From positions 3,008,001 through 3,072,000 of the forward strand of contig CBDASK010000003.1 in the NCBI GenBank assembly GCA_965199495.1: DNA of 64,000 nt. Reading direction: 5' to 3'. A model generated the notes under the pieces. It did not search any database. It saw only the letters and a list, made by a program, of their open reading frames with translations, and was not told the DNA's origin. This document shows positions 2,379 to 64,000 of the stretch, one piece after another (position 1 is the stretch's first letter; each line of letters starts with the position of its first letter). A program made the translations under genes and the position numbers. The stretch comes from Abditibacterium sp. (GTDB lineage Bacteria; Armatimonadota; Abditibacteriia; Abditibacteriales; Abditibacteriaceae).

Positions 2379-2674
2379 GATGAATTATAAATCAAAAATT
2401 CGGCAAATACGCCTGTTTGTTCTACCGAAAGGTTTTAGCCTTATTCTTCTGTTTGAATGCGTTACCTGTCAAGTCCCAACGCAAGTTTGATTTATTCGCG
2501 CAACCTTTGGGGAAATAATTTGATTTGTCCTCGCTACGACAGAGGACGCAACAGAACTGGGGGAGCCACGGCGGCGGCGCTTCGTTTAAAGACGGACTCG
2601 CCATTTCCTTGTATCATAGGAAGAACGCGCGCATTTTTTAACGCGCAGTTCTCTCGTTGAGTCCTTTAGATTAT

Positions 2675-4969
2675 ATGCCGGAAACCCTTACTTCCACCGA
2701 CGATACGCAGGTCAAACCGTTGCCCGACGCCGTGCGCGACATTCTGGGCACCGTCGGCGTCAACGGCGATGCCGTGTTGCAGTTGCAGACCGACATCGGT
2801 TCCAACGGCCACTTCGCCGAACGTTATCTGGTGGCCACGCCGCAAAAGTTAGTCATCGTCGCCAACAACGGCTCCGCCAAAATAGAGCGCGAAGTGCCCT
2901 TGTCGGAAATCGGCCACATCGAATCGCGTGGACTGGCGGGCACGGCCAGTTTAGAAGCGCGCCTCAAAACGCGCGACGGCGAAAAAGTCGTCGAGCTTTT
3001 GCGCGGCTCTAACGCGCGCGCGCGCGAAATGTCGCAGGCCGCCGAAAAGATCAACCAACTGCGCGAAACCGGCGAAATCCCGGCGCCGCGCACCAAAGAA
3101 AAAACCAAGTTTTGCCCCAAGTGTGGGCGGCCTTTGCCGGTTGATTCCAACGTCTGCGCGTTCTGCAATGACCGCGTCGCCACGCTCAAACGGCTTTACA
3201 GCTATATGATTCCCTACAAGCGGATGGCGATTGTTTCGGCGCTGCTCAACTTGTTCACGGTCGGTTTGGGATTCGTGCCCGCGCTGTTGACGCGCCAACT
3301 GATTAACGGCGTTTTCACACCTGCGGTTGATAAAGGCGCGGCGGCGGCGGTGGCCAATCAAAAATCGGGCGAGGCGATGCAGACGCTTTATTGGATGGTC
3401 GGCGCGATTCTGCTGACGGCGGCTCTCAACGCCGTGGCTGGTGTTGTGCGCGGGCGCATCGCTTCGTATCTGGGCGCCGCCGTGTTGCACGACATCCGCG
3501 CGCAACTCTATTCGCATTTGCAGCGTTTGTCGGTTTCGTATTACGACAAACGTGAAGTCGGCGCCGTGATGAGCCGCGTGCAAAACGATGTCGGCGCGAT
3601 TCAGAACTTTTTGCTCGACACCGCCGAATCCACCATTATTTCGCTGCTCACGATTGCGGGTGTGGTCACGGTGATGCTTTATCATTCGCCGTCGCTGGCG
3701 TTTTTCGTGCTGCTGCCGATTCCGTTTGTGATTCGCGCGACCTTCAAATACTGGACGGGCCTGATGCAGTTGTGGCGCCGCGTGTGGCACCAGAACTCGG
3801 TTTTGGGCGCGCGGTTGGCCGACGCATTGGGCGGCGTGCGCGTGGTGCGCGCCTTTGGCGCCGAAGAGCGCGAAGTCGGCAACTTCGTGTCGCGTTCGGG
3901 TTCGCTGCGCGACGCCACCATGAACGTCGAAACCAAGGCGGCCAACTTCTACCCGATCATCAGTTTCGTGATGGGTTTGAGCTTGCCCATCGTCTACGTT
4001 TACGGCGGCTCGTTGGTTTTGAAAGGCACGCTCGACTTTGGCACGCTCATTCTGTTCACCATGCTTTTGGGCATGATCGCCGGGCCGGTCACGCAGTTGA
4101 CGCGTCAGGTTTCGGCCATCACGCGCGCGACGACTGCCGCCGAGCGCGTCTTTGAAGTGATGGATTCCGAACCCGAAATTCAGGAAGCCGAAAAACCCGT
4201 CGCGATGCCGAAGATGGAAGGCGATGTTGAATTTCGCAACGTTTCGTTTGGCTACGAGCGCGAGCGCCCGGTTTTGAAGAACGTCAACCTCGACATCAAA
4301 GCGGGCGAAATGATCGGTTTGGTCGGCCATTCGGGCGCGGGCAAGTCAACGCTGATTAACCTGTTGTTGCGCTTCTACGATGTGACCGAAGGCGCGCTTT
4401 TGATTGACGGCGTGGATATTCGCGACATCAATCGCGACGATTTGCGCCGTCAGGTCGGCGTGGTTTTGCAGGAATCGTATCTGTTCCACGGCACGATTTA
4501 CGACAACATCGCCTACGGCAACCCCGACGCGACGCCCGCGCAGGTCATGGCGGCGGCGCGCGCGGCGCACGCCCATCACTATATCGTCGGTTTCCCTGAT
4601 GGTTACGATACGCTCGTCGGCGAGCGCGGCACACGTTTGAGCGGCGGCGAACGCCAGCGCATCGCGATTGCGCGCGCGATTTTGCACAACCCGAAAATCT
4701 TGATCTTGGACGAAGCCACGGCGAGCGTGGACACCCAGACCGAAGCCGCGATTCAAGGCGCGTTGCAGAATTTGACCAAGGGCCGCACGACGTTCGCGAT
4801 TGCTCACCGTTTGTCAACGCTGAAAAACGCGGATCGTCTGGTCGTCATCGAAGGCGGCCAGGTTGTCGAAGTCGGCACGCACGACGAACTCATGCAAAAG
4901 CGCGGCGCGTTTTACCGTCTGGTGCAAGCTCAACAGAGCATGAACCAAATCGTCACCGTTGGCGGTTAA
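2675..4969 (+). CDS. ABC exporter (fused permease + ATPase) with an N-terminal extension and CxxC...CxxC zinc ribbon
   Basis: Walker A GHSGAGKS, signature LSGGERQR, ILDEAT, six-TM region, CPKCG...CAFC. Confidence 0.93.
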   Translation: MPETLTSTDDTQVKPLPDAVRDILGTVGVNGDAVLQLQTDIGSNGHFAERYLVATPQKLVIVANNGSAKIEREVPLSEIGHIESRGLAGTASLEARLKTRDGEKVVELLRGSNARAREMSQAAEKINQLRETGEIPAPRTKEKTKFCPKCGRPLPVDSNVCAFCNDRVATLKRLYSYMIPYKRMAIVSALLNLFTVGLGFVPALLTRQLINGVFTPAVDKGAAAAVANQKSGEAMQTLYWMVGAILLTAALNAVAGVVRGRIASYLGAAVLHDIRAQLYSHLQRLSVSYYDKREVGAVMSRVQNDVGAIQNFLLDTAESTIISLLTIAGVVTVMLYHSPSLAFFVLLPIPFVIRATFKYWTGLMQLWRRVWHQNSVLGARLADALGGVRVVRAFGAEEREVGNFVSRSGSLRDATMNVETKAANFYPIISFVMGLSLPIVYVYGGSLVLKGTLDFGTLILFTMLLGMIAGPVTQLTRQVSAITRATTAAERVFEVMDSEPEIQEAEKPVAMPKMEGDVEFRNVSFGYERERPVLKNVNLDIKAGEMIGLVGHSGAGKSTLINLLLRFYDVTEGALLIDGVDIRDINRDDLRRQVGVVLQESYLFHGTIYDNIAYGNPDATPAQVMAAARAAHAHHYIVGFPDGYDTLVGERGTRLSGGERQRIAIARAILHNPKILILDEATASVDTQTEAAIQGALQNLTKGRTTFAIAHRLSTLKNADRLVVIEGGQVVEVGTHDELMQKRGAFYRLVQAQQSMNQIVTVGG

Positions 4970-4984
4970 AGTTGGAAATTGCAA

Positions 4985-5016
4985 AAAAGGGACGCCGTGT
5001 CTGCGGCGTCCCTTTT
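4985..5016 (+). terminator. Intrinsic terminator
   Basis: AAAAGGGACGCCG-loop-CGGCGTCCCTTTT just after the ABC stop codon. Confidence 0.8.
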
Positions 5017-5210
5017 CGTTAGCCAAGCGCGGGATTTGGAAAAACGGATGATTTTTAGAAAAAACTTAAATTTTTCCTGCGCAGGAGATTTCCCTTGTCA
5101 AGGCACCTCACTTGCTTGTTATTTATTTCAATTGCCCGCATCAGAAATAACGGACAATAGAAATTTAGCGGCGTGTCAAGTGAGAGACGCCGATTCACAG
5201 GAAAACAAAA

Positions 5211-6710: not shown

Positions 6711-8420
6711 TTAAAAATCCACGATACCAAACTCGCGCCGCACTTTGCGCGCGATAACGAGCCACATCAACGCGCCGAAAAGGAGCGCAACCCACAAAAA
6801 TGGCAAACCCAGTTGGGTGAATAAATCGAGGTTACGCCAATCGCTGGTCGCGGCCCACGCGACGAACGGGTTGAGCGCCGCCGCCCATTTCTCGGCGCTC
6901 TGGGAACCAAACGTAAACAAAACGCTCGGCACGCCAATCAGCCACGCCGTGATTGTGCCCAGTGTCGCGCCAGTCGCCGAACTGCTTTTGCGCGTGCGAA
7001 GTCCCATCCACAAACCCCACATCGTGGTCGCGATAACGCAGCCTACCCAGATGAATCCAACCGCGAAAAACTGGGTGACAGAAATCGCATCGCTGTATCC
7101 AATTCTTGTGAGGCTCCAGCCTACGCAGGGCAGCAGCAACGGCCAAACCGGCAGCGAAAATAGCGCGCACGCCAGCGCGATGCCCCAAAATTTGCCCGCT
7201 ACAATCGCACCGGGCCGCAGCAGCGAAAGTCGCACGCCTTCCCATGTCCCGCTCTCGAACTCGCGCGCAAATCCGTTGGCGCCCATCACCGCGCACGAAA
7301 TCAGCGTGACGACAAAGCCAGTTACCGTAACGCCCGCGAAAATGATCTCGCGCGAGCCGGTGTCGGTCAGCGCCGTCCAAATCGTCCAAACGTAAAAATA
7401 GGCGACGGCCAGCGCCAGCCCTATTTCGACGATAATGACGACCAACGGCGGTTGGCGCAGACGAAATTTCGAGCGCACTTCGCGCCCCAAAACCGGATTG
7501 GAAAAACGGAGGGCGCCCACTAACGGCATCTCAAAATGGCTGGAATCCACCGGCTTTTTCGCGGCCCGTTCCCCCGTTTTTGTCGCGTTCTTAGCGCCGA
7601 TAAATGGCGCCTGCGTTAGTGGTCTGCGCACACCCTGCATCGCCGCCCACAAACAAAAAATCAGGATTATCCACAGTGACAGCGCTGAGCCGAACCAGCG
7701 ATCTTCCAATCCGCCCGGCACGATCAAATCGTAGGCGCCCAGAAACGGGTTAGTGCGCCCGATGAAATCCACATAAAACGGCGGCGCGTTGCCACCGGGC
7801 CAACCGCCCAAAATGGTGCCGCCCGACAAAAACGCCGCGACGCCCGATCCCAAAATCCACAAAATGACCAAACCGTAAGCCGAGCGCAACGCCAAATGCG
7901 CGCGATGCGACCAAGCCGAACAGGCCAGCCCAATCGCCGCCCCCGTTGCCAATAATAAAACCTGAAACGCCAGCGTAACGCCCAGCGCTTGAATGCCCAA
8001 TCCGCCCAGAAAGTTGATGATGAGCAAAAACGGCAAAAGCACCAGCCAGATCAAAAGCAACGGCGCCATGCCGCCGACCCATTTTTCCAGCACGATGCGC
8101 GCGGGCGTAATCGGCGCCAGCATCAGATTTTCCAGCAATCCGCGTTCGCGTTCGCGCGCGATATTGCCCGCCGTTTGCGCGGGCGCGACCAGTAAAGCTA
8201 ACACCGTCTGCAAAAAGCCGATTTGCCACCACAACGTTTGGCCGACTTCGCGCAATCGCTCGGTCATATCGCTTGTGGGTGAGGTGGAAACCGATTCGTC
8301 GGCGTAGCGCCACAGCAGAAATAGCGCGACGGCGCCCGCCAAACCCAGCAACAGCAAAAAACTGCGCCGGTCGCGCCAATGCGTTCGCAACGCGCGCTGG
8401 AGAATCGGGAGGGAAGTCAT
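6711..8420 (-). CDS. ABC-2-type permease-like membrane protein with an internal duplication
   Basis: Two copies of the ABC-2 motif (IARERERGLLENLMLAPI...IVLEK and FAREFESGTWEGVRLSLL...IVAGK); many TM segments. Confidence 0.8.
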   Translation of the reverse strand: MTSLPILQRALRTHWRDRRSFLLLLGLAGAVALFLLWRYADESVSTSPTSDMTERLREVGQTLWWQIGFLQTVLALLVAPAQTAGNIARERERGLLENLMLAPITPARIVLEKWVGGMAPLLLIWLVLLPFLLIINFLGGLGIQALGVTLAFQVLLLATGAAIGLACSAWSHRAHLALRSAYGLVILWILGSGVAAFLSGGTILGGWPGGNAPPFYVDFIGRTNPFLGAYDLIVPGGLEDRWFGSALSLWIILIFCLWAAMQGVRRPLTQAPFIGAKNATKTGERAAKKPVDSSHFEMPLVGALRFSNPVLGREVRSKFRLRQPPLVVIIVEIGLALAVAYFYVWTIWTALTDTGSREIIFAGVTVTGFVVTLISCAVMGANGFAREFESGTWEGVRLSLLRPGAIVAGKFWGIALACALFSLPVWPLLLPCVGWSLTRIGYSDAISVTQFFAVGFIWVGCVIATTMWGLWMGLRTRKSSSATGATLGTITAWLIGVPSVLFTFGSQSAEKWAAALNPFVAWAATSDWRNLDLFTQLGLPFLWVALLFGALMWLVIARKVRREFGIVDF

Positions 8421-8499: not shown

Positions 8500-9315
8500 T
8501 TAAAGTTCGCCCGCTTCCCAACTCAAAATCGTCGCGGCGACGAGGGCCGCCGTTTCCGTTCGCAAAATTCTCGAACCCAAACTCACGCTTTGTGCGCCGT
8601 AACGCTCAGCTTCTTCTCGTTCGCGCTCCGTCCAACCGCCTTCTGGCCCAACCACGATCATTGCCCGTGGCTGCACTTCGGCGTCGTATTCAATCGGCGA
8701 TTGTTTCAACGTTTCGCGTAGTGCCAATGCGTCCTCGCTTTCGTCCAGAAAAAAACAATGGCCGTCGGATGTGCCCAGCGAAAGCACCGTCGCCAAATCG
8801 GCGATGGCGTGAACGATGGGCACGTCGGCGCGCCCGCACTGCGAAGCGGCGCCTTCGACGATGCGGCGCCAACGTTGCGCGCGCGCCGTGGCTCGCTCGG
8901 CTTCTTCGTCGGGCGATAAGCGCGAAATCGTGCGATCCGAATCGAACGGCCAGAAATCGGTCGCGCCCAATTCGGTGCCTTTTTGCAGCACGAACTCCAT
9001 TTTATCGCCCTTGGGAATGGACTGCGCGATGCTGATTTTCACGCGCCGCACGATGCGCGTGTCGAGCTTTTCTAAAATGGCCGCGCGCGCGCGCGCTTTG
9101 CCGTCGCTCGAAACTTCGGTCAACGCGCATTCCCATTCGCCGCCGCGCCCATCGAAGGCGACAAACGTTTCGCCGGGCGTCATGCGCAGAACTTTGACCA
9201 GTTTCTTGGCGTTGTCGGCGTCTAAATCGAACTCTTGTTCGTCGGTTTCCAGCGCGCCTTCCAAAAGCGAAGGCGAAAGATGAAGTCGGGGCACGCTTTG
9301 GAGTTTATAATTCAC
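8500..9315 (-). CDS. rsmE: 16S rRNA m3U1498 methyltransferase RsmE
   Basis: KVLRM, KGDKMEFVLQKGTELG, QCGR, VGPEGG, LGSRILRTETAA. Confidence 0.95.
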   Translation of the reverse strand: MNYKLQSVPRLHLSPSLLEGALETDEQEFDLDADNAKKLVKVLRMTPGETFVAFDGRGGEWECALTEVSSDGKARARAAILEKLDTRIVRRVKISIAQSIPKGDKMEFVLQKGTELGATDFWPFDSDRTISRLSPDEEAERATARAQRWRRIVEGAASQCGRADVPIVHAIADLATVLSLGTSDGHCFFLDESEDALALRETLKQSPIEYDAEVQPRAMIVVGPEGGWTEREREEAERYGAQSVSLGSRILRTETAALVAATILSWEAGEL

Positions 9316-10107: not shown

Positions 10108-11043
10108 TCAAAAATGAAATTTCTGCACGCGATTGTTATTTGTATCGGCGACGTAAACCGTGCCATTGGACGCAACGCTCAATCCCCACGGATTTTGCAG
10201 TTGGCCCGGCTTGCGCCCGACGCTGCCCCAAGTCGCAACCCATTTGTGTTCGGGCGTCCACTTTTGCACGCGATGATTGGAGTATTCGACGGTGTAAATA
10301 AAGCCTTGCCCATCAACAGCCACGCCGTAGGGATAGGTGAGTTCGCCATTTGCGCGTCCGCGCGGGCCGAACTGGCCTTTGTAAGCGCCGGTTTTTCGAT
10401 CCAAAATCTGAATGCGATGATTGCCGATGTCGGCAACCAATAAATCGCCATTTTTGTCAATCGCCAAACCGCACGGGCGCCGAAACTGGCGTGGCCCTTC
10501 GCCGTGTCCGCTCCAACTGGCGATCTGCTTTCCGTCGCGCGTATATTTGGAAACGCGGTCGAATTCGCCGCCGTAATCGGCCAGATAAATGTAACCATCT
10601 TTGTCGGTTGTGATGCCGGTGACGAGCAAAAATTGTCCTTTGCCGGTGCCGTAACTGCCGAACTGAGATTTGAGCTGGCCGTCGGGACTGTAAATTAAAA
10701 CGCGCGAGGCGTGCGTGTTGGTGACGGCGATGTCGCCATTCGCCAAGTCGGTGATGCCTTCCGGCCCCTCGAAACGCCCGTTGTTCGATACTGGCGATAA
10801 CCATTGCTTGACGAATTTGCCGTCTTTGCTCCACTTGGAAATATGCGAGGCGCGGTCGGCGACATAGACATAGCCGTCGCGCGCCGCGACGATGGCGCGC
10901 GGCCCACGAAATTCGCCCGCATCGGTTCCTTCGCTGCCCCAGACCTGCGCCTGCGGCACCGGCGTGGCTGCTATTTTCGGCGCGCGCGTGCATCCGGCGA
11001 GAGAGCCGAGCAGAGCGAGGGCGAAAAGCGCGCGGGGAATCAT
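10108..11043 (-). CDS. NHL-repeat beta-propeller lipoprotein
   Basis: Lipobox LAGC; six repeats of G.F..P.G.A.D..G.IYVAD..N.RV. Confidence 0.9.
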   Translation of the reverse strand: MIPRALFALALLGSLAGCTRAPKIAATPVPQAQVWGSEGTDAGEFRGPRAIVAARDGYVYVADRASHISKWSKDGKFVKQWLSPVSNNGRFEGPEGITDLANGDIAVTNTHASRVLIYSPDGQLKSQFGSYGTGKGQFLLVTGITTDKDGYIYLADYGGEFDRVSKYTRDGKQIASWSGHGEGPRQFRRPCGLAIDKNGDLLVADIGNHRIQILDRKTGAYKGQFGPRGRANGELTYPYGVAVDGQGFIYTVEYSNHRVQKWTPEHKWVATWGSVGRKPGQLQNPWGLSVASNGTVYVADTNNNRVQKFHF

Positions 11044-11159: not shown

Positions 11160-11810
11160 TCAGTCGCTCTGCGCTACATCCGCTAATTTCCGGCTGCGCA
11201 ACACGCGATAACCTTTGTCGAGCGCGATGGTGTCGCAGTTGCCCCAGCTTTGTTCCAGACGTTTGGCCCAGCTTTTGGCGCCCTGCGCGGTGCGGATGAC
11301 GATCCACAATTCGCCGCGCAGTTTTAGGGCGCGCTGGGCGTCTTCAAATAAACGGGCGATGGCGGCGTTGCCCGCACGAATCGGCGGGTTGCACAAGATG
11401 TCATCGAAGAACTCGGCGCGCGCGGATTTGAGGCCGTTGCCGCTCCAACTGGCGGCATTGGTCAATTCGTTTCTATCAAAATTGTGGGCGCTTAATTGAG
11501 CCGCACGCGGGTTGAGGTCAACGGCCCAGACGTGGCTTTGGGGAAAGCGCGCCGCCACAAAAGCGGCGATGGCGCCCCAACCGCAACCCAAGTCGACGAC
11601 ATAGCCGTTAAACTCTGGGGGCGCTTGAAGTAGCCAATGATGCAGCAACAAACGAGAGCCTTCATCCAGACCTTCGCGCGAAAAGACGCCGCGTGAAGTC
11701 AAAAATTGTAAAGTCAAGCCGTTTACGGTTTGGGGGTGAGACTGGAAACTTTCGAGCTGTTGAACGTCCAAAAGAGTGGTTTGCGGAGAGAAGTAGTGAG
11801 AGGGCGCCAC
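11160..11810 (-). CDS. Class I SAM methyltransferase, RsmC/MTS-like
   Basis: SHYFS, GVFSREGLDEGS, VDLGCGWG, CNPPIRAG. Confidence 0.88.
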   Translation of the reverse strand: MAPSHYFSPQTTLLDVQQLESFQSHPQTVNGLTLQFLTSRGVFSREGLDEGSRLLLHHWLLQAPPEFNGYVVDLGCGWGAIAAFVAARFPQSHVWAVDLNPRAAQLSAHNFDRNELTNAASWSGNGLKSARAEFFDDILCNPPIRAGNAAIARLFEDAQRALKLRGELWIVIRTAQGAKSWAKRLEQSWGNCDTIALDKGYRVLRSRKLADVAQSD

Positions 11811-11957: not shown

Positions 11958-12725
11958 ATGGCAATGAGCAAAGATTTAACTGTTTTGCTGCAAGATTGGG
12001 ATTATAATCCCAATGAAGTCACGGCCCGCAGAATACAGGGCATAGATGGGCGCGAAAAAATTCAGATGCGTCTCGATCTGGGCGTATTGCAGATGGAAAT
12101 CACTGGTCGTCCCGATGGAAAAAGACCTTTTGGTTACGAATCTCTGTTGGAATTTCATCAGGAACGCCTCGAAGAAGCGCAAATTGAAGCCGACGATAGC
12201 GGTCGCTGGCTCGAATGGAGCCTCGACTCCGATGCTTGCACCCATCTGAAACAGGAGGCGATGCAATATTATTATCGTTACCTCTCGATGTTTCACCTGA
12301 GCGATTACGAGGGCGTTATCCGCGATACCAACCGCAATATCCGCGTTTTCGACTTGATTCACGAATACGCCGAAGACGAAAACGACCGTATGTCGTTGGA
12401 ACAGTTTCGCCCCTACGTCTTGATGATGCGCGCGCGCGCTTTGGCTTGTATCGCGCTCGAAGAGAAACAATATAATCAGGCGATGGAACTCATCGAAATT
12501 GGCGTCGAAGAAATTAAAGATTTCTTTTACCAAATCGGGCGCGAAGATTTGATGGGCGAATGTCGCGAGCTGCAATTTCTCGAAGAGTGGGCCGAGCGCA
12601 TCGAAACCAACAAACCGCTTTCGACCGCCGACAAACTGCGCCGCGAACTCAGCCACGCCGTCGAGCAGGAAGATTATGAGCGCGCGGCGAAACTGCGCGA
12701 TCAGTTGCGCGGAATCGCGATTTAG
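11958..12725 (+). CDS. Conserved protein with C-terminal UvrB/UvrC motif
   Basis: KIQMRLDLGVLQMEITGRPDGKRP; C-terminal LSHAVEQEDYERAAKLRDQL. Confidence 0.85.
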   Translation: MAMSKDLTVLLQDWDYNPNEVTARRIQGIDGREKIQMRLDLGVLQMEITGRPDGKRPFGYESLLEFHQERLEEAQIEADDSGRWLEWSLDSDACTHLKQEAMQYYYRYLSMFHLSDYEGVIRDTNRNIRVFDLIHEYAEDENDRMSLEQFRPYVLMMRARALACIALEEKQYNQAMELIEIGVEEIKDFFYQIGREDLMGECRELQFLEEWAERIETNKPLSTADKLRRELSHAVEQEDYERAAKLRDQLRGIAI

Positions 12726-12800: not shown

Positions 12801-13775
12801 TCAATCCAAAACACCGCGATACCATTCCACCGTCTCATTCAACCCGCGCTCCAACTCGAACTCGGCGCGCCAGCCCAATTCTTCGCGCGCTTTGGTCGCG
12901 TCCAAACTTTGATTGACAATTTCGTCCTGCGCCTGATTTAACACAACCGGCGCTAAATCGGCCCGACCGCACGCGGCCAAGATTTGTTCGACCAAAGTCA
13001 ACACCGAGACTGGCGCATTCGAGCCGAAATTGAACGCCGCGCCACGCAGTTCGTGCCGGTGGCTCAATGACTGCGCCAGAGTCAAATAGGCGCTCACGCC
13101 ATCGGCGGCATAAATATAATCGCGTTGATGTTTTCCATCGCTACGAATAATTGGCGCCTCGCCCTGCAACGCCGAGCGAATGGTGCCGGGCACGATGCGA
13201 TTCCAGTTCAAATCGCCCGGCCCGTAAAAGTTGCCACAACGCGTGATGGCGACCGGTAAATCGTAGGTTTGCGCGTAAGTCTGCGCGATCAAATCGGCGC
13301 AACTTTTCGAGACCGCATACGGCTGACGACCTTCGAGGCGCGTGCTTTCGGTGTAAGGCAAAACCTCGCTTTCGCCATAGGCCTTATCGGACGAAGCCAA
13401 AATGATGTCGGGCGATTTAGACAATTGGCGCGCGGCTTCCAATAATCGGTAAGTTCCAGCGATATTGACTTCTAATGTTGTCAGTGGGTCGGCATGAGCC
13501 ACGCCGACCAGAGTCTGCGCGGCCAGATGAAAAACCGTCTGGATTTCATATTCGGCGAGCGTGCGCTTGAGCAAATCGAAATTGGTGCAATCGCCATGAA
13601 CAACGCTCACGCGCTCGGACAAACCCTCGCGTGCGAACAGCGAATGCGGCACCCAATCGCGCGTCAAAGCCACGACATCGGCGCCCAGATCGAGCAATTT
13701 TGCGGTCAAATGCCCGCCGATTAAGCCGGTCGCGCCGGTGATAAATACGCGCCTATCGCGCCAGAAATTTGACAT
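12801..13775 (-). CDS. NAD-dependent sugar epimerase/dehydratase (CDP-glucose 4,6-dehydratase-like SDR)
   Basis: FWRDRRVFITGATGLIG, SSDKAYG, PYAVSK. Confidence 0.9.
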   Translation of the reverse strand: MSNFWRDRRVFITGATGLIGGHLTAKLLDLGADVVALTRDWVPHSLFAREGLSERVSVVHGDCTNFDLLKRTLAEYEIQTVFHLAAQTLVGVAHADPLTTLEVNIAGTYRLLEAARQLSKSPDIILASSDKAYGESEVLPYTESTRLEGRQPYAVSKSCADLIAQTYAQTYDLPVAITRCGNFYGPGDLNWNRIVPGTIRSALQGEAPIIRSDGKHQRDYIYAADGVSAYLTLAQSLSHRHELRGAAFNFGSNAPVSVLTLVEQILAACGRADLAPVVLNQAQDEIVNQSLDATKAREELGWRAEFELERGLNETVEWYRGVLD

Positions 13776-23140: not shown

Positions 23141-23147
23141 GTTTTCC

Positions 23148-23240
23148 GTAGAGAGCCGATTTATCGCGTCTAAAATGCCGATTTGCTTCTTACGTGGAGG
23201 TAAGTTGAACGTGTTAGACGCGATAAATCGGCGTCTCTAC
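23148..23240. repeat. REP-like doublet, family A
   Basis: GTAGAGAGCCGATTTATCGCGTCT ... AGACGCGATAAATCGGCGTCTCTAC. Confidence 0.85.
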
Positions 23241-23335
23241 GGAAATCCGGTGCTAACCTAAATTCGTCCGTCGCAACCGCAGCCCAATTTAATCGTCACC
23301 TTTGGCAACTCCGTCGCTTTATCGCGACGCAAATT

Positions 23336-36978: not shown

Positions 36979-36993
36979 AATTTCTTCGCGCCC

Positions 36994-54666: not shown

Positions 54667-56046
54667 TCATTTCGCCGCCACGGGCAAGTTATCTTTCACG
54701 ACCGAACTCAAGAAATACGGCGATTTGGTCAGCGAGCGATAAACGTCCAATTCCTGCTGCTTATAGGGGCTGACCTGATCGCGAGCCACGCCGCCGCCGA
54801 TGCGATAATCGGCCCATTCGTTCTCGAACCACACGAATTTGCCGTCGGGCCGTTGCGCTGGGACGAATTCGCGTTTGGCGATTTGAAACCAAACCACAGC
54901 TTTGATCATCGGAAACGTCGTGTCAATCGGATCTAAAAACTTCATCGCCGGATAACTCGATGTGCCGTAAACCGCCGGGAGCCAGCCGTATTCGTTGGAG
55001 TTCCAGTAGCCGACGCGCCAATCGCGCGACATTTGCGCGCGCTGCGCCAAAGTCAAATCGGTGCGAAACGAGAGTGTTGCGCTCGTTTCGCAAATCATAA
55101 TCGGCTTGCGTTTCCACTGGCCGTACAATTGGTAAAAATCAACGCTTTCGTTTTTCGGCGTTTTGGTGTCGTCGGCCATGTCGTGCGTCAGGTTATAAGC
55201 GAACTGGCCGCCCCACAAATGGGCGCCCGGTTGCGGCATCGTCCAGCCGCGCTCGTAAACGTCCAGGCCGACCCAATCCACTACGTCGTCGCCCGGATAA
55301 AAAGGCCGAAAAACATCGCGTTTGTCGCCGCCCAAAAGTCCCGAATTGGGACACCAGATCAAAGCCGCGTTGGGCGCGTATTGCCGAAACATCAGCGCGA
55401 CGTTGCGATACATCTGAACGTAATCGGCGGCGGTAAAACCGGTTTCTTCGCCCGGATCGCGGCGCATATTTTTGTTGAGATCGTTCCACTCGCTCCACGG
55501 ATACCACGAACCGTTCATCTCGTGAGCGAACCGGATGAAAACCGGTTTGCCCCAATTGCCCGCGCCCTGCGCGAACGCCTTGGTCGCTTCGTAACTGCGG
55601 CTGCCCGGCTTCCAATCCAAAAACGATTTGGGCGCGAACGGCTCCATCGTGATAATCGGCGTCGCGCCAACTTTAGCCGTCGCATCGGCGAAAGTCGCCG
55701 CCGAAATCCAGCCGTTGGCGTCTTTGTCCCACGTCCCGAACTCGCCTTCGAGATTGGGAAACTGCACGAAGTGCATGAAAAGCGCCTGCTTGCGGCCCGC
55801 CGCATCGAAATCGCTCATCGCGCCCGCCAGCGAAGTCGTCGCATCGCCGCTCGTCTCGGACGTATCGAGTGCCGCGCCCAGATAAACACCTGATTTCGGT
55901 TCATACATCGCCGGTTTGACTGGGCCAACTGGTTTATCGGCGGCAAACGGATCGAGCTTAATCGGCGGCGTGGCTGCCTTGGAGGCGCAGGCGCTCAGCA
56001 GACTGGTTAAGGCGAGCGCGGCGCACAAAAGCGGATGTTGTTTCAT
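54667..56046 (-). CDS. Glycoside hydrolase family 26 lipoprotein
   Basis: Lipobox LSAC; IRFAHEMNGSWYPW, FYPGDDVVDWVGLDVY, KPIMICET. Confidence 0.88.
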   Translation of the reverse strand: MKQHPLLCAALALTSLLSACASKAATPPIKLDPFAADKPVGPVKPAMYEPKSGVYLGAALDTSETSGDATTSLAGAMSDFDAAGRKQALFMHFVQFPNLEGEFGTWDKDANGWISAATFADATAKVGATPIITMEPFAPKSFLDWKPGSRSYEATKAFAQGAGNWGKPVFIRFAHEMNGSWYPWSEWNDLNKNMRRDPGEETGFTAADYVQMYRNVALMFRQYAPNAALIWCPNSGLLGGDKRDVFRPFYPGDDVVDWVGLDVYERGWTMPQPGAHLWGGQFAYNLTHDMADDTKTPKNESVDFYQLYGQWKRKPIMICETSATLSFRTDLTLAQRAQMSRDWRVGYWNSNEYGWLPAVYGTSSYPAMKFLDPIDTTFPMIKAVVWFQIAKREFVPAQRPDGKFVWFENEWADYRIGGGVARDQVSPYKQQELDVYRSLTKSPYFLSSVVKDNLPVAAK

Positions 56047-56175: not shown

Positions 56176-57177
56176 ATGTCAAACGAAACGTTGGAATTGA
56201 GCGAACACGAGTTATATTTTCTGCCACCCGGCACACCAGCCACGGCGCCCGCCACGCGCGTCGAAGTCGAAGTTAACGGCGAAATGCGCGTGTTTTTGGC
56301 GCGCTTGGAATGGCAGTATCAAGATATAGAAGACAGCAGTTTCTATTTTGTATTCTATAGAGACCGAGACATTGACGCTGAAAATTCGGTGATTTTAGGC
56401 AAAGGTTTTTATATTACTGCCGAAGAGTCTTTTGTATCGGAGCAAAAAAAGGCTGCGCGAATTCAACAATGTGTTGCTATGAGGCACTTCGAGCGTTTTT
56501 GGTGTGCGCCCAACGCTCAATTTGGGATACGCTTTCTTTTATCTGGAAAAGTAACGGTTATGTGGCGCGAGTCAGGGGGAATGTATGCGGAAGAAACTTT
56601 CATTGGACTCCACTGGGAAAAAGCCGTATTAAGAAGTTGGTCTCAATACGAATTTATTGAATTTTGCAAGCAGCTTTATGCTGACCAACAATCACAATTA
56701 CACTTCGTTCTGCACTGGCACAATATGCTTCCAGAAGAAAGAGACGAGATTGCTTTTGCATGCGAAAATAGCAATTGGGAAAATTTACGAAATCTATTTT
56801 CTTGCGCTTTGAAATTGATAACTTACCGAAGTGGTTTTTTTCCTCCTTCCTCTAAGTCATCTTCTTATTAGAGTTTCACGCGTGATTACGTTAGCACGTC
56901 CAGAACACTAAACCCACATAAATCCCTTTTGTGGGCCGACTTTTGGCGTAGCACTCTTTGTAATATCGTGCGTCCTTCATTTTGGAGAGATGAACCGTAT
57001 TGCATTTATTTATGGCGTATTCGCGCACCTCAACGCGAAAAACGTCTCTATGTAACTTGCACAATGCCAACCCATCACGAAGTTCTCGAAGCGCAACTTC
57101 AACTGCGCGAATTTCTGCGTCCGCATTTGTCCGACGACGAAATCGAGGCGTTGATGCGGCCCGAACCAATGGCATGA
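56176..57177 (+). pseudogene. Hypothetical gene interrupted by one in-frame TAG (56869-56871)
   Basis: ORFs 56140-56871 and 56929-57177 share a frame, with no other stop between them; the middle is AT-rich. Confidence 0.6.
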
Positions 57178-57495: not shown

Positions 57496-60075
57496 ATGCT
57501 CGCCCAATTCGGCTCGCTCTTTTCCATTTTACGCACGCTCGCGCGCCCGTTGCGCTTTCGTCCGATGCTGTGGATGGCGCTATGCGCTTTGATCGGCATC
57601 GCGCTGGGCGGCGCGTTGGCGATGAGTCTGGGCGTGCCAAACGATGTCACGCGCGCCGATGGACGTTTGATTTGGCCATTGCCGCTCGCGATTATCGCGC
57701 TGGCGATTGCATTCGTGATGCGCCAGCACGCTTTGTGGTGGCGCGTGGCTGTGGCGGGCGCGCTCATTCTCGGTTTCGCCGCGCACGCCGCGCGTCGAGT
57801 TGCGCCTCCGGCGGGCGATATTTCGCGCTTGGCGCGTTTGCCCGCGCGCGTGAATGGCCCGTTGGTTGCGCCCGTGGCTGTGGTGCGCGGCATCGTCGCC
57901 GATTATCCCCGGCGCGCCGAATTTAACACGCAGTTTCCGCTCGATTGTCGAGGCCAATATGCGGGCCGCGTCTGGGTGCGCGCGCCGTTCGATTTTTCGG
58001 CGCGCGTTGGCGACGAAGTCGAGATGCAATTGGAACTCAAGCCGCTTCAAAGTGCGACCAATCCCGGCGAGCGCGACGATTTTTGGAGTTCGATTGGCGC
58101 CAATTGTTGGGTCGAAGGCAATCTGTATCGCGCGCCGCGCCAACGCGCGCAGTGGCGCATCGTCCGGCGCGGCGCGGCTTTGCCGGTCGCGCGCGCCGTT
58201 GACCTTTGGCGTAGCGCGATTTTGAATCGCTACGAAACCGTATTTCGCGGGCGAGACAGCGCGCCGTTTCCCGGTCGGCCCTTTCCCTCAGCCACGGCGC
58301 AGTTGCTCACGGCGATGGTGTTTGGCGAAGGCGGACTTTCGCGCCCTTTGCCGCGCGAATTGCGCGATAATTTTCGCGCGGCGGGTTTGTCGCACTTGCT
58401 TGTCGCCAGTGGAACGCAGGTCACGTTCATCGCGGGCGCGCTTATTTTCGGATTGCAGGCGTTGGGCGTGCGGCGCTTTTGGTTGGTTGTGGGCGTGTTG
58501 CCGGGACTTTTGGCCTATGCGCTGTTGGCGGGCACGGCGCCCTCGATTTGGCGCGCGACGTTGGGCGGAGTTTTGGTGGCGTTCGCGCTCGCGAGTGGGC
58601 GCGAAGTGGACGGATTATCGCTGTGGGGCGCGGCGTTGCTGGCGCTTTTACTGATCGATCCAGCTTTGGCGTGGAGTTTGTCGTTGCAACTCACGTTTGC
58701 CGCGACGTGGGGTTTAATCTGTTTGTCGCCGGTCATTTTACGTTTGATTCGCCACGTCGCCGATGGTTACCTGGCGCAGTTGGCGGCGCTTTCGCTGGGC
58801 GCGCAGTGGGCGACGTTACCGATTTCGCTGTTTCATTTCGGCACTTTCAGCATCGTCGGTTTGGGCGCCAATTTCTTCGCCGTGCCGCTCGCGGGCGTCT
58901 TGGTTTTTACCGGCGCTCTGGGTTTGATAATTCCCGCTTTCGTCACGCTGAATTATTGGCAGACGCGCGCTATCGAAGGTGTCGCGCAGGGTTTTGCCCA
59001 GTTGCCGGGCGCGGGCGTGCAGGGCAGCAACGTGAAAATCGCGTGGGTTTTCGTCTGTTATGGTCTATGTTTACTTTCGATGGCGACGGTCTATTCCGAA
59101 GAACCCGGCGCGTGGGGCCGCGCTGTTATCTGGCTTCGGTATCGTTGGAACAAACTCAAATCGAGCGATCCGCGTCCGTATCTGGCGCTCGCAGTTTTGG
59201 CGGGCGCCGGTCTGTTGTGGTGGCGATTTGCCCCGGCGCCGCAGACACTACGCGCCATCGTTTTGGATGTCGGGCAGGGCAACGCCACGCTAATCATTTC
59301 GCCGCGCGGACGCGCGATTTTGGTGGATGCCGGAACCGGCGATGGGCGCGCTGACGTCGGGCAATCTGTTGTTTTGCCCGCGCTCAAAGAGTTGGGCGTC
59401 GAGCGTTTGGACGCGGTTTTCGTGACGCGTTCCGACGCCGCGCATTGCAGCGGTTTGCCCGCCGTGTTACGCGAAATCCCCGTCGCGATGCTGGTGGACG
59501 GTGCGCAGGCCGCAGAAATTCAACGTCCGCCATCCGAATTGGATTTATTGGCGCCCGATCCGTCCGAAGTGGATTATTTGGCGTTGCGACAAATCGCGCA
59601 AACGCAAAAAATTCCGCTCGTGGTTCCGCGCGCCGGGCAAGGTTACGATTTCGATGGTGTCGCCGTGCGCGTGTTGGCGCCGACGATTCCGCCGCTGCAA
59701 ACGAGCGGCGATAATTCGCTGGCGTTGCGCATCAGTTGGGGCGCGTCCTCGATTTTGATGCCGGGCGATTTGGAAAACGCGGGCGAAGAACGCTTGCTAC
59801 GGCGCGGCGGCGAATTGCGCTCGACGGTTTTAATCGTCGGTAATCACGGCGGAAATCAAAGTTGCAGCGCCGACTTCCTGCGCGCCGTGGCTGCTCGCAT
59901 CGCGCTGATTCCGGTCGGCAAGTATAATCGCGAAAAAACTCCGACGCGCGGCGTTTTGCAACGCCTGAACGCCGCGCGCGCCGTGGTTTTGCGCACCGAT
60001 TTGGATGGCGCATTGAGCGTCGAATGTTCGCGCGAGAATTGTAGCGTCAGCGCGGCGCGGCAAGCGGGACAATAG
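57496..60075 (+). CDS. comEC: DNA internalisation competence protein ComEC/Rec2
   Basis: OB-like region (NPG), F..AGLSHLL..SG, SLQLTF.AT, N..AVP; MBL-like domain LDVGQG...LVDAG...GD.E...RTD.DG. Confidence 0.9.
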   Translation: MLAQFGSLFSILRTLARPLRFRPMLWMALCALIGIALGGALAMSLGVPNDVTRADGRLIWPLPLAIIALAIAFVMRQHALWWRVAVAGALILGFAAHAARRVAPPAGDISRLARLPARVNGPLVAPVAVVRGIVADYPRRAEFNTQFPLDCRGQYAGRVWVRAPFDFSARVGDEVEMQLELKPLQSATNPGERDDFWSSIGANCWVEGNLYRAPRQRAQWRIVRRGAALPVARAVDLWRSAILNRYETVFRGRDSAPFPGRPFPSATAQLLTAMVFGEGGLSRPLPRELRDNFRAAGLSHLLVASGTQVTFIAGALIFGLQALGVRRFWLVVGVLPGLLAYALLAGTAPSIWRATLGGVLVAFALASGREVDGLSLWGAALLALLLIDPALAWSLSLQLTFAATWGLICLSPVILRLIRHVADGYLAQLAALSLGAQWATLPISLFHFGTFSIVGLGANFFAVPLAGVLVFTGALGLIIPAFVTLNYWQTRAIEGVAQGFAQLPGAGVQGSNVKIAWVFVCYGLCLLSMATVYSEEPGAWGRAVIWLRYRWNKLKSSDPRPYLALAVLAGAGLLWWRFAPAPQTLRAIVLDVGQGNATLIISPRGRAILVDAGTGDGRADVGQSVVLPALKELGVERLDAVFVTRSDAAHCSGLPAVLREIPVAMLVDGAQAAEIQRPPSELDLLAPDPSEVDYLALRQIAQTQKIPLVVPRAGQGYDFDGVAVRVLAPTIPPLQTSGDNSLALRISWGASSILMPGDLENAGEERLLRRGGELRSTVLIVGNHGGNQSCSADFLRAVAARIALIPVGKYNREKTPTRGVLQRLNAARAVVLRTDLDGALSVECSRENCSVSAARQAGQ

Positions 60076-60580: not shown

Positions 60581-61585
60581 ATGGAAACCGTTCCTTTATC
60601 AACCGAAGAAGCCGCCATCGCGCGCGATGGGATGCGCCGCGTTATCGCCCAAGTCGAGCGCGTTATTGTTGGCAAACGCAGCGTCGTCGAATTGTGCGCT
60701 CTGGCTTTGCTGGCGCGCGGCCACGTTCTCATCGAAGATGTGCCGGGCACTGGCAAAACCATGCTCGCCAAAGCGTTCGCGCGCGCGATGGGCGGCGAGT
60801 TCAAGCGCATTCAGTTCACGCCCGATCTGCTGCCGGGCGATGTGACCGGGCTTTCGATTTACAGCCCGAAAACCGGCGATTTTTCGTTTGTGCCCGGCCC
60901 GATTTTCGCTCACGTTTTGCTGGCCGACGAAATTAATCGCGCCACGCCCAAAACGCAGGCGGCGCTTTTGGAAGCGATGGAAGAAGCGCAAGTCACCAAC
61001 GACGGCCAGACGCGCGCTTTGCCGCGCCCGTTTTTGGTGTTGGCCACGCAAAATCCCATCGAATATCGCGGCACTTACCCGCTGCCCGAAGCGCAAATGG
61101 ACAGATTTTTGTTGCGCGTCGGTTTGGGCTATCCGACGAGAGCGCAGGAAATCGAAATGGTCTCGCGCCACGTCCATTCGGGCGCGGGCGCCAGCGAGCG
61201 GGGCGCCCTCGCCGGACAAGCTGGATCGTTGCTCAACGCCGTCGAACCGATTTTGTCGGTTGAGGAAGCGCGGCGTTTTCAGGCCGACCGAATGCGCGTT
61301 CAAATCGCGCCCGAACTGCACGAATATCTGGTGGATTTAGTTCACGCCACACGCAGCCACGTCGCCGTGGCTCTGGGCGCCTCGCCGCGCGCGACGCTGG
61401 CGCTGCAACGCGCGGCGCAGGCCAACGCGTTGCTCGATGGCCGCACTTATGTCGTGCCCGAAGACATCAAAACTCTGGCGCCTCATGTGTTGTCGCACCG
61501 TCTGATTTTGCACGGCGAAAGCGGTAACCCGCGCGCCTCGCACGATTTGGTATGCGCCATTTTAGACGAAGTCGCCGTCAGGTGA
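60581..61585 (+). CDS. MoxR-family AAA+ ATPase
   Basis: GHVLIEDVPGTGKT, RIQFTPDLLP.D, LADEINR..PKTQ.ALLE.M, ATQNP.E..GTYPLPEAQ.DRF, GASPR. Confidence 0.95.
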   Translation: METVPLSTEEAAIARDGMRRVIAQVERVIVGKRSVVELCALALLARGHVLIEDVPGTGKTMLAKAFARAMGGEFKRIQFTPDLLPGDVTGLSIYSPKTGDFSFVPGPIFAHVLLADEINRATPKTQAALLEAMEEAQVTNDGQTRALPRPFLVLATQNPIEYRGTYPLPEAQMDRFLLRVGLGYPTRAQEIEMVSRHVHSGAGASERGALAGQAGSLLNAVEPILSVEEARRFQADRMRVQIAPELHEYLVDLVHATRSHVAVALGASPRATLALQRAAQANALLDGRTYVVPEDIKTLAPHVLSHRLILHGESGNPRASHDLVCAILDEVAVR

Positions 61586-61756: not shown

Positions 61757-61780
61757 TCACATCCGATTATCCGATAAATT

Positions 61781-62449: not shown

Positions 62450-62900
62450 ATTGCCCGAAATCTGGCGTTATCTGCGCGGCGCGCGCGTTTACGTGGACGC
62501 CAACGCGTGGATTTACGCGCGCGAACCGTTGCCGAAATGGGACGATTTGCGTTTGTTTTTGCAACTGGCGCACGCCGGATATTGGCGTTTGGTGACGAGC
62601 GAACTTTCGCTCGCCGAAGCGCTCGTGCACCCGATTCGCGACCGCGACCGCCGCGCGCAATCCGAGTTCGGGCGCGCCCTGCAAAGCGACGAACAGTTGG
62701 CGGTGGCTGCTGTTTCGCGCCCAATATTAATCGAGGCCGCGACACTTCGCGCCACGCGCGGCCTCGAAATGCCCGACGCGATTCACGCCGCGACCGCCAA
62801 AATCGCGCGCTGCACGCACTTTCTGACCGGCGACGAAGCCTTAGCGCGCGCCGTTCACTTGCCGGTTTTGCGCGTCGAAAATTTGCGCGGCGACGCGTAA
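62430..62900 (+). CDS. PIN-domain (VapC-like) ribonuclease
   Basis: VYVDANAWIY, TSELSLAEALV.P, PDAIHAATA, FLTGD; all four acidic residues present; ATG at 62430. Confidence 0.88.
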   Translation: MDSAPLKLPEIWRYLRGARVYVDANAWIYAREPLPKWDDLRLFLQLAHAGYWRLVTSELSLAEALVHPIRDRDRRAQSEFGRALQSDEQLAVAAVSRPILIEAATLRATRGLEMPDAIHAATAKIARCTHFLTGDEALARAVHLPVLRVENLRGDA

Positions 62901-62902
62901 CT

Positions 62903-63054
62903 TTTGGAGCGCGGGCTTTAGCCCGTCCGAAAATAGACTTCTTGCAAACGTGCCAGCGAATAAATTCGCTGGCACGTTTGCAAAAGTCTATTTAGAAATC
63001 GCTTGAATCGAAGTCAATAAACGGAATTTTACGGGCTAAAACCCGCGCTCCAAA
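62903..63054. repeat. Nested palindrome (family E)
   Basis: TTTGGAGCGCGGGCTTTAGCCCGT ... ACGGGCTAAAACCCGCGCTCCAAA enclosing TTGCAAACGTGCCAGCGAAT-AA-ATTCGCTGGCACGTTTGCAA. Confidence 0.8.
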
Positions 63055-63068
63055 CAACTTTTCAATCC

Positions 63069-64000
63069 ATGCCACTGCTCAATAAAAATCGGCTTGTTTT
63101 GCTGATCGCGATTCTGTCGGCGGCGGCGGGCGCGCTCGTTTTCAAAACGCCCGCCGTGCTGTTTTTGTTGGCGACGCTGGTTTGCGCGCCGATTTTGGCG
63201 AGCGCGATTGGTCGCTTGATGTCGCGCGGCTTGAAAATTTCGCGGCAGATGCCGCTCGTCGCCAGTGTGGGCGATGAACTGCGCGCGCGCTTAACCGTGC
63301 GCAACGTCGGGCCGCTCCCGGCGCTTTTGGTTCATGCGCAGGGGCGTGGTAGCGACGAACCAATCCGATCTGCGTCGTGGCGCCAGCGCAAATCCGAAAC
63401 GCGCGTCAATAACGCGAGCGTTCCCTTTTACGAAGTTGTGGGCGAGGCCGAATTGGTGGTGCCGGTGCTGATGCCGGGCGCGAGTTTTACGGGCGAAGTC
63501 GTCTGGAAACTGACGCGGCGCGGCGTTTATCCGTGGCCCGGCGCGCGCGCGGGCACGCTCGACCCGGTCGCGCTGAGCGACTTGCTGCGCGCGTGGAGCG
63601 CGCCCGCCGAGCTGACGGTTTGGCCGCGTCCGCTCAAGCTACGCCGTTTTCAGTTGGGCGGCAGCTCGCCCAGCGTTCAGCCGCACCGAAGAGCCACGGC
63701 GTCCGCCGATGCCGCCGAAGTTCACGGCGTGCGGCCCTATCAGGCGGGCGAAGGCGGGCGGCGCATTCACTGGCGCGCGACGGCGCGCACTGGCGAACTG
63801 CACGTCATCGAATGGGAAGAAGATTCCGCCGCCGACCTGACGATTTTATTGGACGTTCAAGCCGCTTTGGTCGCCGGAACGTCGGGGCAGGATTCGCTGG
63901 AAATGGCGATTGTGGCGGCGGCTTCGGTGGCGGCGTTCACGCTGGAAAATGGCCAGCGCGCCCGCATTTTCTGGTGGGCCGACGACCCGGCGAACCCAAA
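63069..64000 (+). CDS. DUF58-domain protein (MoxR-associated), truncated by the window edge
   Basis: My translation: two N-terminal TMs, RRGVY, DP, V.PR, VHGVRPYQAGEGGRRIHWRATARTGELHV.E.E, ILLD. Confidence 0.88.
   Translation, partial: MPLLNKNRLVLLIAILSAAAGALVFKTPAVLFLLATLVCAPILASAIGRLMSRGLKISRQMPLVASVGDELRARLTVRNVGPLPALLVHAQGRGSDEPIRSASWRQRKSETRVNNASVPFYEVVGEAELVVPVLMPGASFTGEVVWKLTRRGVYPWPGARAGTLDPVALSDLLRAWSAPAELTVWPRPLKLRRFQLGGSSPSVQPHRRATASADAAEVHGVRPYQAGEGGRRIHWRATARTGELHVIEWEEDSAADLTILLDVQAALVAGTSGQDSLEMAIVAAASVAAFTLENGQRARIFWWADDPANP

Follow-up and report, generated by a model that had tools for sequence, protein, structure and literature searches.

The window analysed here is a stretch of 64,000 nucleotides (contig CBDASK010000003.1 of assembly GCA_965199495.1, positions 3,008,001 to 3,072,000; G000:C3:3008001-3072000 in our numbering) from Abditibacterium sp., a soil-type bacterium of a little-studied group, and the element in question is a short DNA word built around the heptamer CGTGGCT, which recurs throughout the window on both strands. 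The three-contig genome containing the window, G000, comprises a chromosome of 4.72 Mb with 55.7% G+C and two small replicons of 24.7 and 64.6 kb; crude calling by open reading frame (ORF) and codon score yielded 3,613 genes, i.e., 85.7% coding DNA, with 672 kb at 49.4% G+C outside the called genes. CGTGGCT is matched 63 times in the window, 32 times on the plus strand and 31 times on the minus strand, in agreement with the initial annotation of this DNA, which had put the two numbers at about 32 and 30; 100 dinucleotide-preserving shuffles gave a mean of 8.70 copies (standard deviation 2.71, largest value 17). The 9-mer CGTGGCTGC, previously estimated at about 20 copies, has exactly 20 matches against 0.89 expected, and the 15 positions listed for it at that time are all among them. 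Twenty-nine of the 63 cores belong to the full 11-mer word CG-N-CGTGGCTG, and 41 to its 8-mer core, CGTGGCTG. Placement almost entirely inside genes had also been claimed, and 58 of the 63 copies indeed fall within called ORFs.

In terms of core coordinates, full 11-mer words are located on the plus strand at 3433-3439, 10963-10969, 18345-18351, 20632-20638, 25689-25695, 34689-34695, 36533-36539, 42961-42967, 52551-52557 and 55969-55975, and on the minus strand at 6940-6946, 10318-10324, 12651-12657, 15999-16005, 18924-18930, 19604-19610, 20970-20976, 35458-35464, 41452-41458, 43702-43708, 47038-47044 and 56238-56244, the last of which has an orthologous site with a GGA flank in locus L002. 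Three close inverted pairs are present. Two of them consist of full words: 23037-23058 (cores 23039-23045 on the minus and 23050-23056 on the plus strand), inside the 3' end of ORF 20180-23140, and 40604-40622 (cores 40606-40612, minus, and 40614-40620, plus). The third, 61353-61372 (cores 61355-61361, minus, and 61366-61372, plus), lies inside the ORF of a MoxR-type ATPase (60581-61585). The 8-mer core is found on the plus strand at 8666-8672, 14254-14260, 19873-19879 (here with the GGA...GG flanks typical of a relative, G004), 24765-24771, 27247-27253, 31616-31622, 44730-44736 and 46020-46026, and on the minus strand at 51431-51437 and 53331-53337. Copies of the 7-mer core occupy positions 8887-8893, 11531-11537, 14824-14830 (in the ftsK ORF), 17043-17049, 23389-23395, 33621-33627, 37919-37925 and 50701-50707 of the plus strand, as well as 2564-2570 (with a CGC flank and no 3' G), 4714-4720, 13497-13503, 13668-13674, 15608-15614, 23962-23968, 29678-29684, 33113-33119, 40299-40305, 45205-45211, 47193-47199, 54784-54790 and 63692-63698 of the minus strand. 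The comEC gene (57496-60075, plus strand; Pfam DUF4131, Competence and Lactamase_B) itself carries four cores, as had been noticed at the outset, at 57744 (+), 57873 (+), 58290 (-) and 59886 (+).

Form of the word and its excess over composition

The enrichment is not confined to the window, as the chromosome contains 4,533 cores (0.96 per kb), and no 10-, 11- or 12-mer of the genome is more frequent than those that contain the core. The logo over all cores has C at -3 in 69%, G at -2 in 77%, G at +7 in 68% and C at +8 in 51% of the copies, with nothing farther out. This logo and the variant counts replace the form proposed in the initial annotation, (GC)CGTGGCT(GC), by CG-N-CGTGGCTG(C). The 11-mer (CGnCGTGGCTG) is asymmetric, not a palindrome, and numbers 2,179 copies, about one per 2 kb, while its single-base variants have merely 4-331 copies each. 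Its free position N (C in 1,051 copies, G in 640, A in 421, T in 67) is a codon site where the choice of base alters the amino acid.

Within genes, the 11-mer was counted 1,997 times, against 59.6 ± 6.9 after synonymous-codon shuffling within genes (20 replicates), 24 ± 4.5 after codon permutation (20 replicates) and 127.6 ± 13 under a genome-wide dicodon Markov chain (10 replicates); for the 7-mer, 4,134 copies are to be compared with 752, 655 and 1,971, respectively. The excess survives all three codon-level nulls, which rules out a codon or dicodon artefact. Outside the called genes, the 176 copies of the 11-mer compare with 1.3-2.0 expected under Markov models of order 1-3 and 14.3 under order 5, the enrichment there being about 100-fold. 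One-off variants of the core are mostly rarer than expected from the synonymous shuffle (ratios 0.15-0.8), the ratio for the perfect core being 10.7, and this pattern fits the conversion of near-words into words.

We consider practically negligible the probability that the word arises from codon, dipeptide or oligonucleotide composition, or that it is a fragment of a longer dispersed repeat. Its favoured frames do give common alanine-rich peptides (xAVAA, AATA), and the genome does abound in CG-containing oligomers; however, the codon-level nulls all fail at least 16-fold for the 11-mer, the enrichment is equally strong outside genes, and congeners of similar composition show background counts. 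As to the longer repeat, it is ruled out by the logo, whose information reaches the background 3-4 bases from the core. Repeats of the repetitive extragenic palindromic (REP) or miniature inverted-repeat transposable element (MITE) type have a longer, hairpin-forming and mostly intergenic unit, whereas the Abditibacterium word is short and 92% of its copies are in genes.

The word is read in all six frames, as had been suggested, though very unevenly: its sense frames comprise 890, 149 and 26 copies (peptides xAVAA, AAWL and RRGC), and the antisense frames 650, 247 and 35 (AATA or AATP, SSHx and QPRR), so that xAVAA and AATA/AATP are the commonest readings. The share of GCT among alanine codons is 9.5% outside the word and 58.9% wholly inside it. 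Thus, the earlier remark on unusual alanine codons holds for GCT; it does not hold for GCA, none of which lies wholly inside the 7-mer. The use of six frames in both orientations and the rise of the rare GCT codon indicate that the word is favoured as DNA and not through the protein. Along genes, the copies are evenly spread, without position bias. The strands are also balanced, with 1,072 and 1,107 copies of the 11-mer in total, no imbalance in any of the 24 bins of 200 kb, and 77 versus 83 copies in a 200-kb sample of G004. This confirms the strand symmetry described initially and rules out a replichore polarity of the kind known for Chi or KOPS (FtsK-orienting polar sequences). The GC skew of the G000 chromosome is itself almost flat (cumulative span of about 1.2 over 472 windows of 10 kb).

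Distribution in acquired DNA and among relatives

The small replicons of G000 contain 0 and 1 copies of the 11-mer, whereas at the chromosomal density about 11 and about 30 would be present. On the chromosome, 9 of 235 windows of 20 kb have five or fewer 8-mers, against 2.4 expected from a Poisson distribution. Five of these nine windows were annotated, and they contain a TIR protein, two large serine recombinases, a DUF3854 protein, phage capsid and portal genes beside QueC/QueF, and defence genes of the ubiquitin-like E2/ThiF kind; a further stretch without the word belongs to an element that encodes ParB, DUF932, a Cas4-like nuclease, a serine recombinase and E2/ThiF/JAB proteins. In the genes of the least typical codon-usage decile the word is enriched 4.1-fold, compared with 5-7-fold elsewhere. 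The depletion in horizontally acquired DNA is therefore seen at both levels, with the small replicons at background and the prophage and island windows poor in the word, which accordingly distinguishes native from acquired DNA in the genomes that carry it.

Some of these regions deserve mention in their own right. The prophage-like stretch at G000:C3:4240001-4260000 (L254) has its capsid and portal genes adjoining a QueC-QueF fusion, a hint that the phage DNA may carry 7-deazaguanine modifications. The integrative elements and defence islands at 430001-446000 (L062) and 1140001-1220000 (L251-L253) of the same contig, likewise poor in the word, encode ParB, DUF932, a Cas4-like nuclease, large serine recombinases, TIR and E2/ThiF/JAB proteins, as well as several large ORFs without a Pfam match (1,118 and 1,556 aa among them).

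Of 30 relatives, two have the 11-mer in abundance, G011 (1,838 copies) and G004 (739); the other 28 have 1-112 copies, near the reversed-pattern control. Likewise, the 8-mer core is enriched about 10-fold in only three of the 27 genomes of the family, namely G000, G011 and G004. In G004, it is set in other flanks, the logo being (T)nGGA-CGTGGCT-GGTGTC, and this dialect form, GACGTGGCTGG, numbers 1,693 copies, compared with 78 in G000 and 63 in G011. Of the 8-mer sites of G000, 37 of 52 are intact in aligned DNA of the G011 type, where 40% of all 8-mer windows are identical; across the change of dialect to G004 the figure is 25 of 93, against 29% for controls, which means that the sites turn over when the dialect changes. 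A site-by-site comparison of the comEC neighbourhood agrees with this pattern, and the ComEC proteins of species with different word flanks are 77% identical. The word is thus shared only with close relatives, one of which has a dialect of it, and in DNA of the G011 type its sites are kept better than average 8-mers. Searches of the literature on Abditibacterium, on competence in Abditibacteriota and on uptake sequences in Armatimonadetes, supplements lying outside their range, returned no description of it among the papers listed.

Other members of the family possess other words. The pattern RAGTACTY occurs at 2,695-4,371 sites per genome, about one per kb, in G032-G035, G014 and G018 (AGTACT-word loci L230-L249, L009, L032, L036 and L038), where the AGTACT-centred palindromes take the forms TCGAGTACTCGA, TGCAAGTACTTGCA and CAAAGTACTTTG. 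In full, the palindrome reads TCGAGTACTCGA in G035 and TGCAAGTACTTGCA in G014, and copies of either word exclude each other at short range, the coefficients of variation (CV) of spacing being 0.80 and 0.63. In G000, G011, G003, G008, G016 and G036-G038, the same pattern is found 0-7 times, against 117-348 for the reversed control (5 sites against 117 in G000), a near-absence of the kind expected from restriction avoidance. The congener G001 (genome of 3.2 Mb, roughly 56-60% G+C) has an unrelated, AT-rich and asymmetric word, (T)CCACAAAAAATGAA; CCACAAAAAATG is present there in 2,162 copies, against 1 for the control, frequently in close inverted pairs. That this word (L003) is a start-codon context is ruled out, as most ATGs within it open only short frames; in G008 and G005 it is slightly above the control (25 and 13 copies). 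Altogether, 10 of 27 species of the family carry a hyper-abundant word of some kind, and 17 of 27 genomes have none of the four words searched for.

The palindromes of the sister genera support the half of the initial proposal that called the word similar to HIP1, the highly iterated palindrome of cyanobacteria, and they raise an explanation by methylation: a word made and kept by a methyltransferase-linked repair bias, as in Elhai's model, which would be the target of an asymmetric methyltransferase and would have no role in DNA exchange. HIP1 and the alternate HIPs resemble the words of this family in their 15- to 300-fold over-representation, in the conservation of sites and in the replacement of the word in some lineages (PMC5861425, PMC4390886), and two genera of the family of G000 carry the HIP-like palindromes TCGAGTACTCGA and TGCAAGTACTTGCA. 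The abundance of AGTACT palindromes in sister genera and their near-absence from most other genomes point to modification or restriction enzymes, alternate HIPs accompany matching methyltransferases in cyanobacteria (PMC4390886), and G000 does encode several C5 and N4/N6 methyltransferases. However, unlike HIP1, the Abditibacterium word is not palindromic, and no methyltransferase family tracks the word carriers of the family: C5 methylases are absent from five of the 10 word carriers and partial in one, N6_N4 methylases are present in 27 of 27 family genomes, and no profile separates carriers from non-carriers. No Vsr endonuclease was found in G000 at the Pfam cut-off (best match 24.5 bits, cut-off 27). 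Besides, a repair bias at one methylated base could hardly, by our reasoning, lift a 10-base word 100-fold on its own, it leaves unexplained why only neighbours of the same orientation are lost (see below), and HIP1 sites have been argued to be kept by selection and not by biased repair (PMC5861425). We therefore regard this explanation as unlikely.

Exclusion between copies of the same orientation

Neighbouring copies of the 7-mer on the G000 chromosome alternate in orientation 2,799 times and repeat it 1,733 times. For the 8-mer, the alternating fraction is 0.629, against 0.500 ± 0.009 in 2,000 label permutations, none of which exceeded 0.530. Pair correlation of the 11-mer relates this to distance: the value for pairs of the same orientation is 0.06-0.14 below 300 bp, 0.27 at 300-500 bp, 0.46 at 500-750 bp and 0.65 at 750-1000 bp, reaching approximately 1 above 1.5 kb, and that for opposite orientations stays at 0.8-1.3, which means no exclusion; below 30 bp, copies of opposite orientation are even in excess. 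Twelve control 7-mers of like abundance have alternation of 0.46-0.50 and CV above 1, and on each strand the 7-mer of the word has a CV of 0.81-0.84 at a mean spacing of about 2.1 kb. Other carriers also show alternation, in 99 of 159 neighbouring pairs sampled from G004 and 79 of 117 from G011. Convergent and divergent arrangements of opposite pairs do not differ to any extent of note.

The exclusion is strongest within one gene, where pairs at 60-1000 bp number 212 in the same and 545 in opposite orientation; gene orientation is therefore not the cause of the alternation, and an artefact of this kind is ruled out. Copies of the same orientation thus exclude each other up to about 1 kb and opposite ones do not, which is a new property. 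The exclusion of like-oriented copies, combined with the retention of opposite ones, suggests a reader that works on a single strand or in a single direction. As a quantitative signature, the exclusion narrows the mechanism to one that reads strand-specifically or directionally over about 1 kb, and any genome with a hyper-abundant word can be examined for it.

For comparison we turned to the DNA uptake sequence (DUS) of Neisseria, using metagenome contigs that had been chosen for an inverted pair of DUS and are hence conditioned on it (36 loci, 533 kb and 322 singleton DUS after removal of overlaps). Pairs of singleton Neisseria-type DUS at 60-1000 bp are 72 in the same against 111 in opposite orientation (p = 0.005), and at 1-6 kb 430 against 445. 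The 60-200 bp bin (5 against 24) supplies most of this signal, and once it is removed the numbers are 67 and 87; an earlier hand-picked set, checked for redundancy, gave 69 and 118. Per-orientation exclusion is thus only weakly present in the Neisseria-type contigs and was rejected as a known property of DUS.

The regular spacing on each strand, with its mean of about 2.1 kb for the 7-mer, could also be that of sites bound by a factor which organises the chromosome or is linked to replication, and which has to serve forks or loops in either direction. The very weak GC skew, which hints at no fixed direction of replication, would suit such a factor, and HIP1 has been linked to chromosome structure (PMC5861425). 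However, the plasmid, phage and island sequences of the same cell get by without the word, 17 of the 27 family genomes show none of the four words, and the flanks change between species whose ComEC proteins are 77% identical. Absence from mobile DNA and from relatives, together with shifting flanks, is not what one expects of an essential housekeeping site, and we hold this role to be very unlikely.

A directional reader would also be at hand if the word were a Chi-like signal of intracellular recombination and repair, read by a helicase-nuclease that moves along the DNA from an end; since a two-ended break needs both orientations, selection or drive would then keep no fewer than one correctly oriented copy per 1-2 kb or so each way. 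Such a reader predicts saturation specific to orientation, in which respect the orientation-dependent function of Chi would fit the data, as would the even spread of copies on each strand (CV of 0.81-0.84 for the 7-mer). The GCTGGTG of the G004 dialect makes up seven of the eight bases of Chi in Escherichia coli. Chi sites are 5-8 nt long and modestly enriched, whereas the Abditibacterium word has 10-16 informative positions and is enriched about 100-fold, and it shows no co-orientation with replication. The enzymes are another difficulty. RecC is found in none of the 27 family genomes by a search that was positive in the E. coli control, and no AddB-like ORF was seen in G000, G004 or G011; tblastn of the AddB-like and AddA-like ORFs of G009, which adjoin each other (L250, 4065-10544), against G000 returned no AddB and a single weak UvrD-like match of 22% identity. 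The absence of RecC (hence of RecBCD) and of AddAB from G000 weakens the Chi explanation. AddB-like ORFs of about 1,000-1,160 aa do occur in eight congeners without the CGTGGCT word, and most congeners have an operon that joins an addB-like to an addA-like gene; over the family, AddB-like ORFs are present in one of 10 word carriers and nine of 17 non-carriers (with the partial ORFs of G007 and G015 included), but, since the carriers fall into few clades, this anti-marker is only a lead.

Apart from a 268-aa island protein, the only match to PD-(D/E)XK nucleases in G000 is a protein of 1,421 aa (G000:C3:4111365-4115630; L061, 6365-10630, minus strand) with this nuclease at the N-terminus and a superfamily 1 (SF1; AAA_11/AAA_12) helicase at the C-terminus, and its gene adjoins that of a bacterial topoisomerase IB. 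Judging by its domains, it is possibly the end-processing enzyme of a genome without RecBCD or AddAB, and as such speaks for a Chi-like step; on the other hand, a nuclease-helicase of this kind is also encoded in G016 and G017, which lack the word. A Chi-like step has been raised for HIP1 too (bioRxiv 10.1101/2024.09.10.611283). On balance, we find the Chi-like role improbable.

A candidate tag of self-DNA

The explanation we favour, although we would rate its chances slightly below even, is that CG-N-CGTGGCTG(C) serves as a tag of self-DNA in one subclade of Abditibacterium, which would be spread by biased recombination and read on one strand. In this model some protein of the cell would read the word base by base over 10-16 positions, and DNA bearing it would be favoured in homologous exchange within the species, most likely in natural transformation. 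Changes that create the word would then spread and those that destroy it would be replaced, i.e., a molecular drive would operate, as argued for DUS and for the uptake signal sequence (USS) and proposed for HIP1. The gain would saturate, so that a second copy of the same orientation within about 1 kb would add nothing and not be kept, while one of opposite orientation would be kept independently; this would be the case, for example, if the word were read on the incoming single strand that goes on to recombine, and not on the duplex regardless of orientation. About 1 kb may accordingly be the length of the unit served by one copy. The existence of the reader protein, the strand specificity of its reading and the assignment of the process to recombination or uptake are what we infer.

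The uptake or recognition function suggested in the initial annotation predicts a set of sequence-level properties, and these are found: an excess over the codon and dicodon nulls, balanced use of the strands, depletion on the small replicons and in islands, sharing with close relatives only, including a dialect, and better retention of sites than of average 8-mers. The exclusion per orientation and the presence of genes for transformation are likewise observed, whereas the uptake function itself is a supposition. Three features depart from DUS and USS, namely the low intergenic share of 8%, the close inverted pairs lying mostly inside genes and the strong same-orientation exclusion.

One of the closest known counterparts is the DUS of Neisseriaceae, likewise a non-palindromic word of 10-12 bp. 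It recurs on both strands at roughly one copy per kb, has no replichore bias, prefers certain frames within genes and is lacking from mobile elements; it combines a conserved core with species-specific flanks, or dialects, and its copies are spaced on a scale of about 1 kb (PMC2397512, PMC7371117), which reportedly matches the length of gene-conversion tracts, about 1.1 kb (PMC2397512). The Abditibacterium word, in contrast, belongs to another phylum (Abditibacteriota/Armatimonadota), is 8% intergenic with few terminator-like inverted pairs, and shows strongly the same-orientation exclusion that is weak in our DUS sample. With the USS of Pasteurellaceae it shares a hyper-abundant asymmetric core embedded in common peptides and a spacing more even than random (PMC1939737, citing Karlin et al.). 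The USS differs in having AT-rich flanking segments, many one-off variants and an uptake indifferent to orientation (PMC1939737), whereas the word described here has no flank signal beyond 3-4 bases and its one-off variants are rarer than expected. PMC12061091 cites a preference for one strand in the case of single-stranded DUS DNA; the terms 'orientation' and 'spacing' are absent from a recent survey of DUS and USS (bioRxiv 10.1101/2025.10.24.684340).

Several observations weigh against a tag of this kind. About half of the DUS and USS copies are in terminators (bioRxiv 10.1101/2025.10.24.684340), while only 177 of the 2,179 copies of the 11-mer (8.1%) are outside gene calls, in 14.4% of the chromosome. 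Inverted pairs within 30 bp number 121, with 99 in genes and 17 intergenic; the close pairs are therefore not mainly terminators, and terminator pairs are ruled out as the main form of the word. The weakness of the signal in Neisseria-type DUS means that strong exclusion per orientation is not an established property of uptake sequences, and in Haemophilus influenzae orientation has no effect on uptake (PMC1939737). ComP_DUS (PF16732) has no match in G000, nor in any of 14 control genomes. G000 does possess genes for transformation (comEC, one ORF of the HHH_3/ComEA type and dprA), eight secretin matches and eight matches to T2SSE ATPases of the PilB/PilT type, but competence genes are common in bacteria without an uptake sequence, so that their presence is permissive only.

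There is also a broader supposition, to which we give a rather low probability: Abditibacteriaceae may possess a quickly re-targetable word-writing system. In 10 of 27 species it would maintain a 12-16 bp word at about one per kb, either asymmetric (the CGTGGCTG core, whose flanks come in two dialects; CCACAAAAAATG) or palindromic (TCGAGTACTCGA; TGCAAGTACTTGCA; CAAAGTACTTTG), through a one-strand or directional reader that would tag each strand independently at distances of at least about 1 kb. If this were true, words of the DUS/USS and HIP types would represent one mechanism, a tag on incoming single-stranded DNA gating recombination, and such a mechanism would exist well outside Proteobacteria and Cyanobacteria.

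To our knowledge, sequence-specific DNA uptake is established in two proteobacterial families only. HIP1 is only now being tied to transformation, which it reportedly raises in a methylation-dependent manner (bioRxiv 10.1101/2024.09.10.611283), and it has been proposed as an uptake sequence (PMC13756078). A third, unrelated lineage would lend itself to comparative work on the readers of such words and on the changes in their specificity, since it offers a word as sharp and abundant as DUS, dialects in sister species, unrelated neighbouring words, some of them palindromic, and wordless relatives. In practical terms, transforming these barely tractable bacteria may require constructs to which the word has been added.

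Some minor features of these genomes are separate from the word. The commonest 7- to 9-mers of the G000 chromosome are alternating CG runs such as CGCGCGC, despite its 55.7% G+C. A 7.9-kb contig of G004 (G004:C1, L022) consists almost wholly of one unit repeated about 106 times and is probably a CRISPR array. A REP/MITE-like intergenic hairpin repeat of about 100 nt is located at 23141-23250 of the window, as well as at 943-1036 and 36993-37088; it is absent from the small replicons and occupies about 89 places on the chromosome, its predicted RNA fold has an energy of -67.4 kcal/mol (z = -12.6), and it accounts for the over-representation of the k-mers TATCGCGTCT and GTCTCTA.

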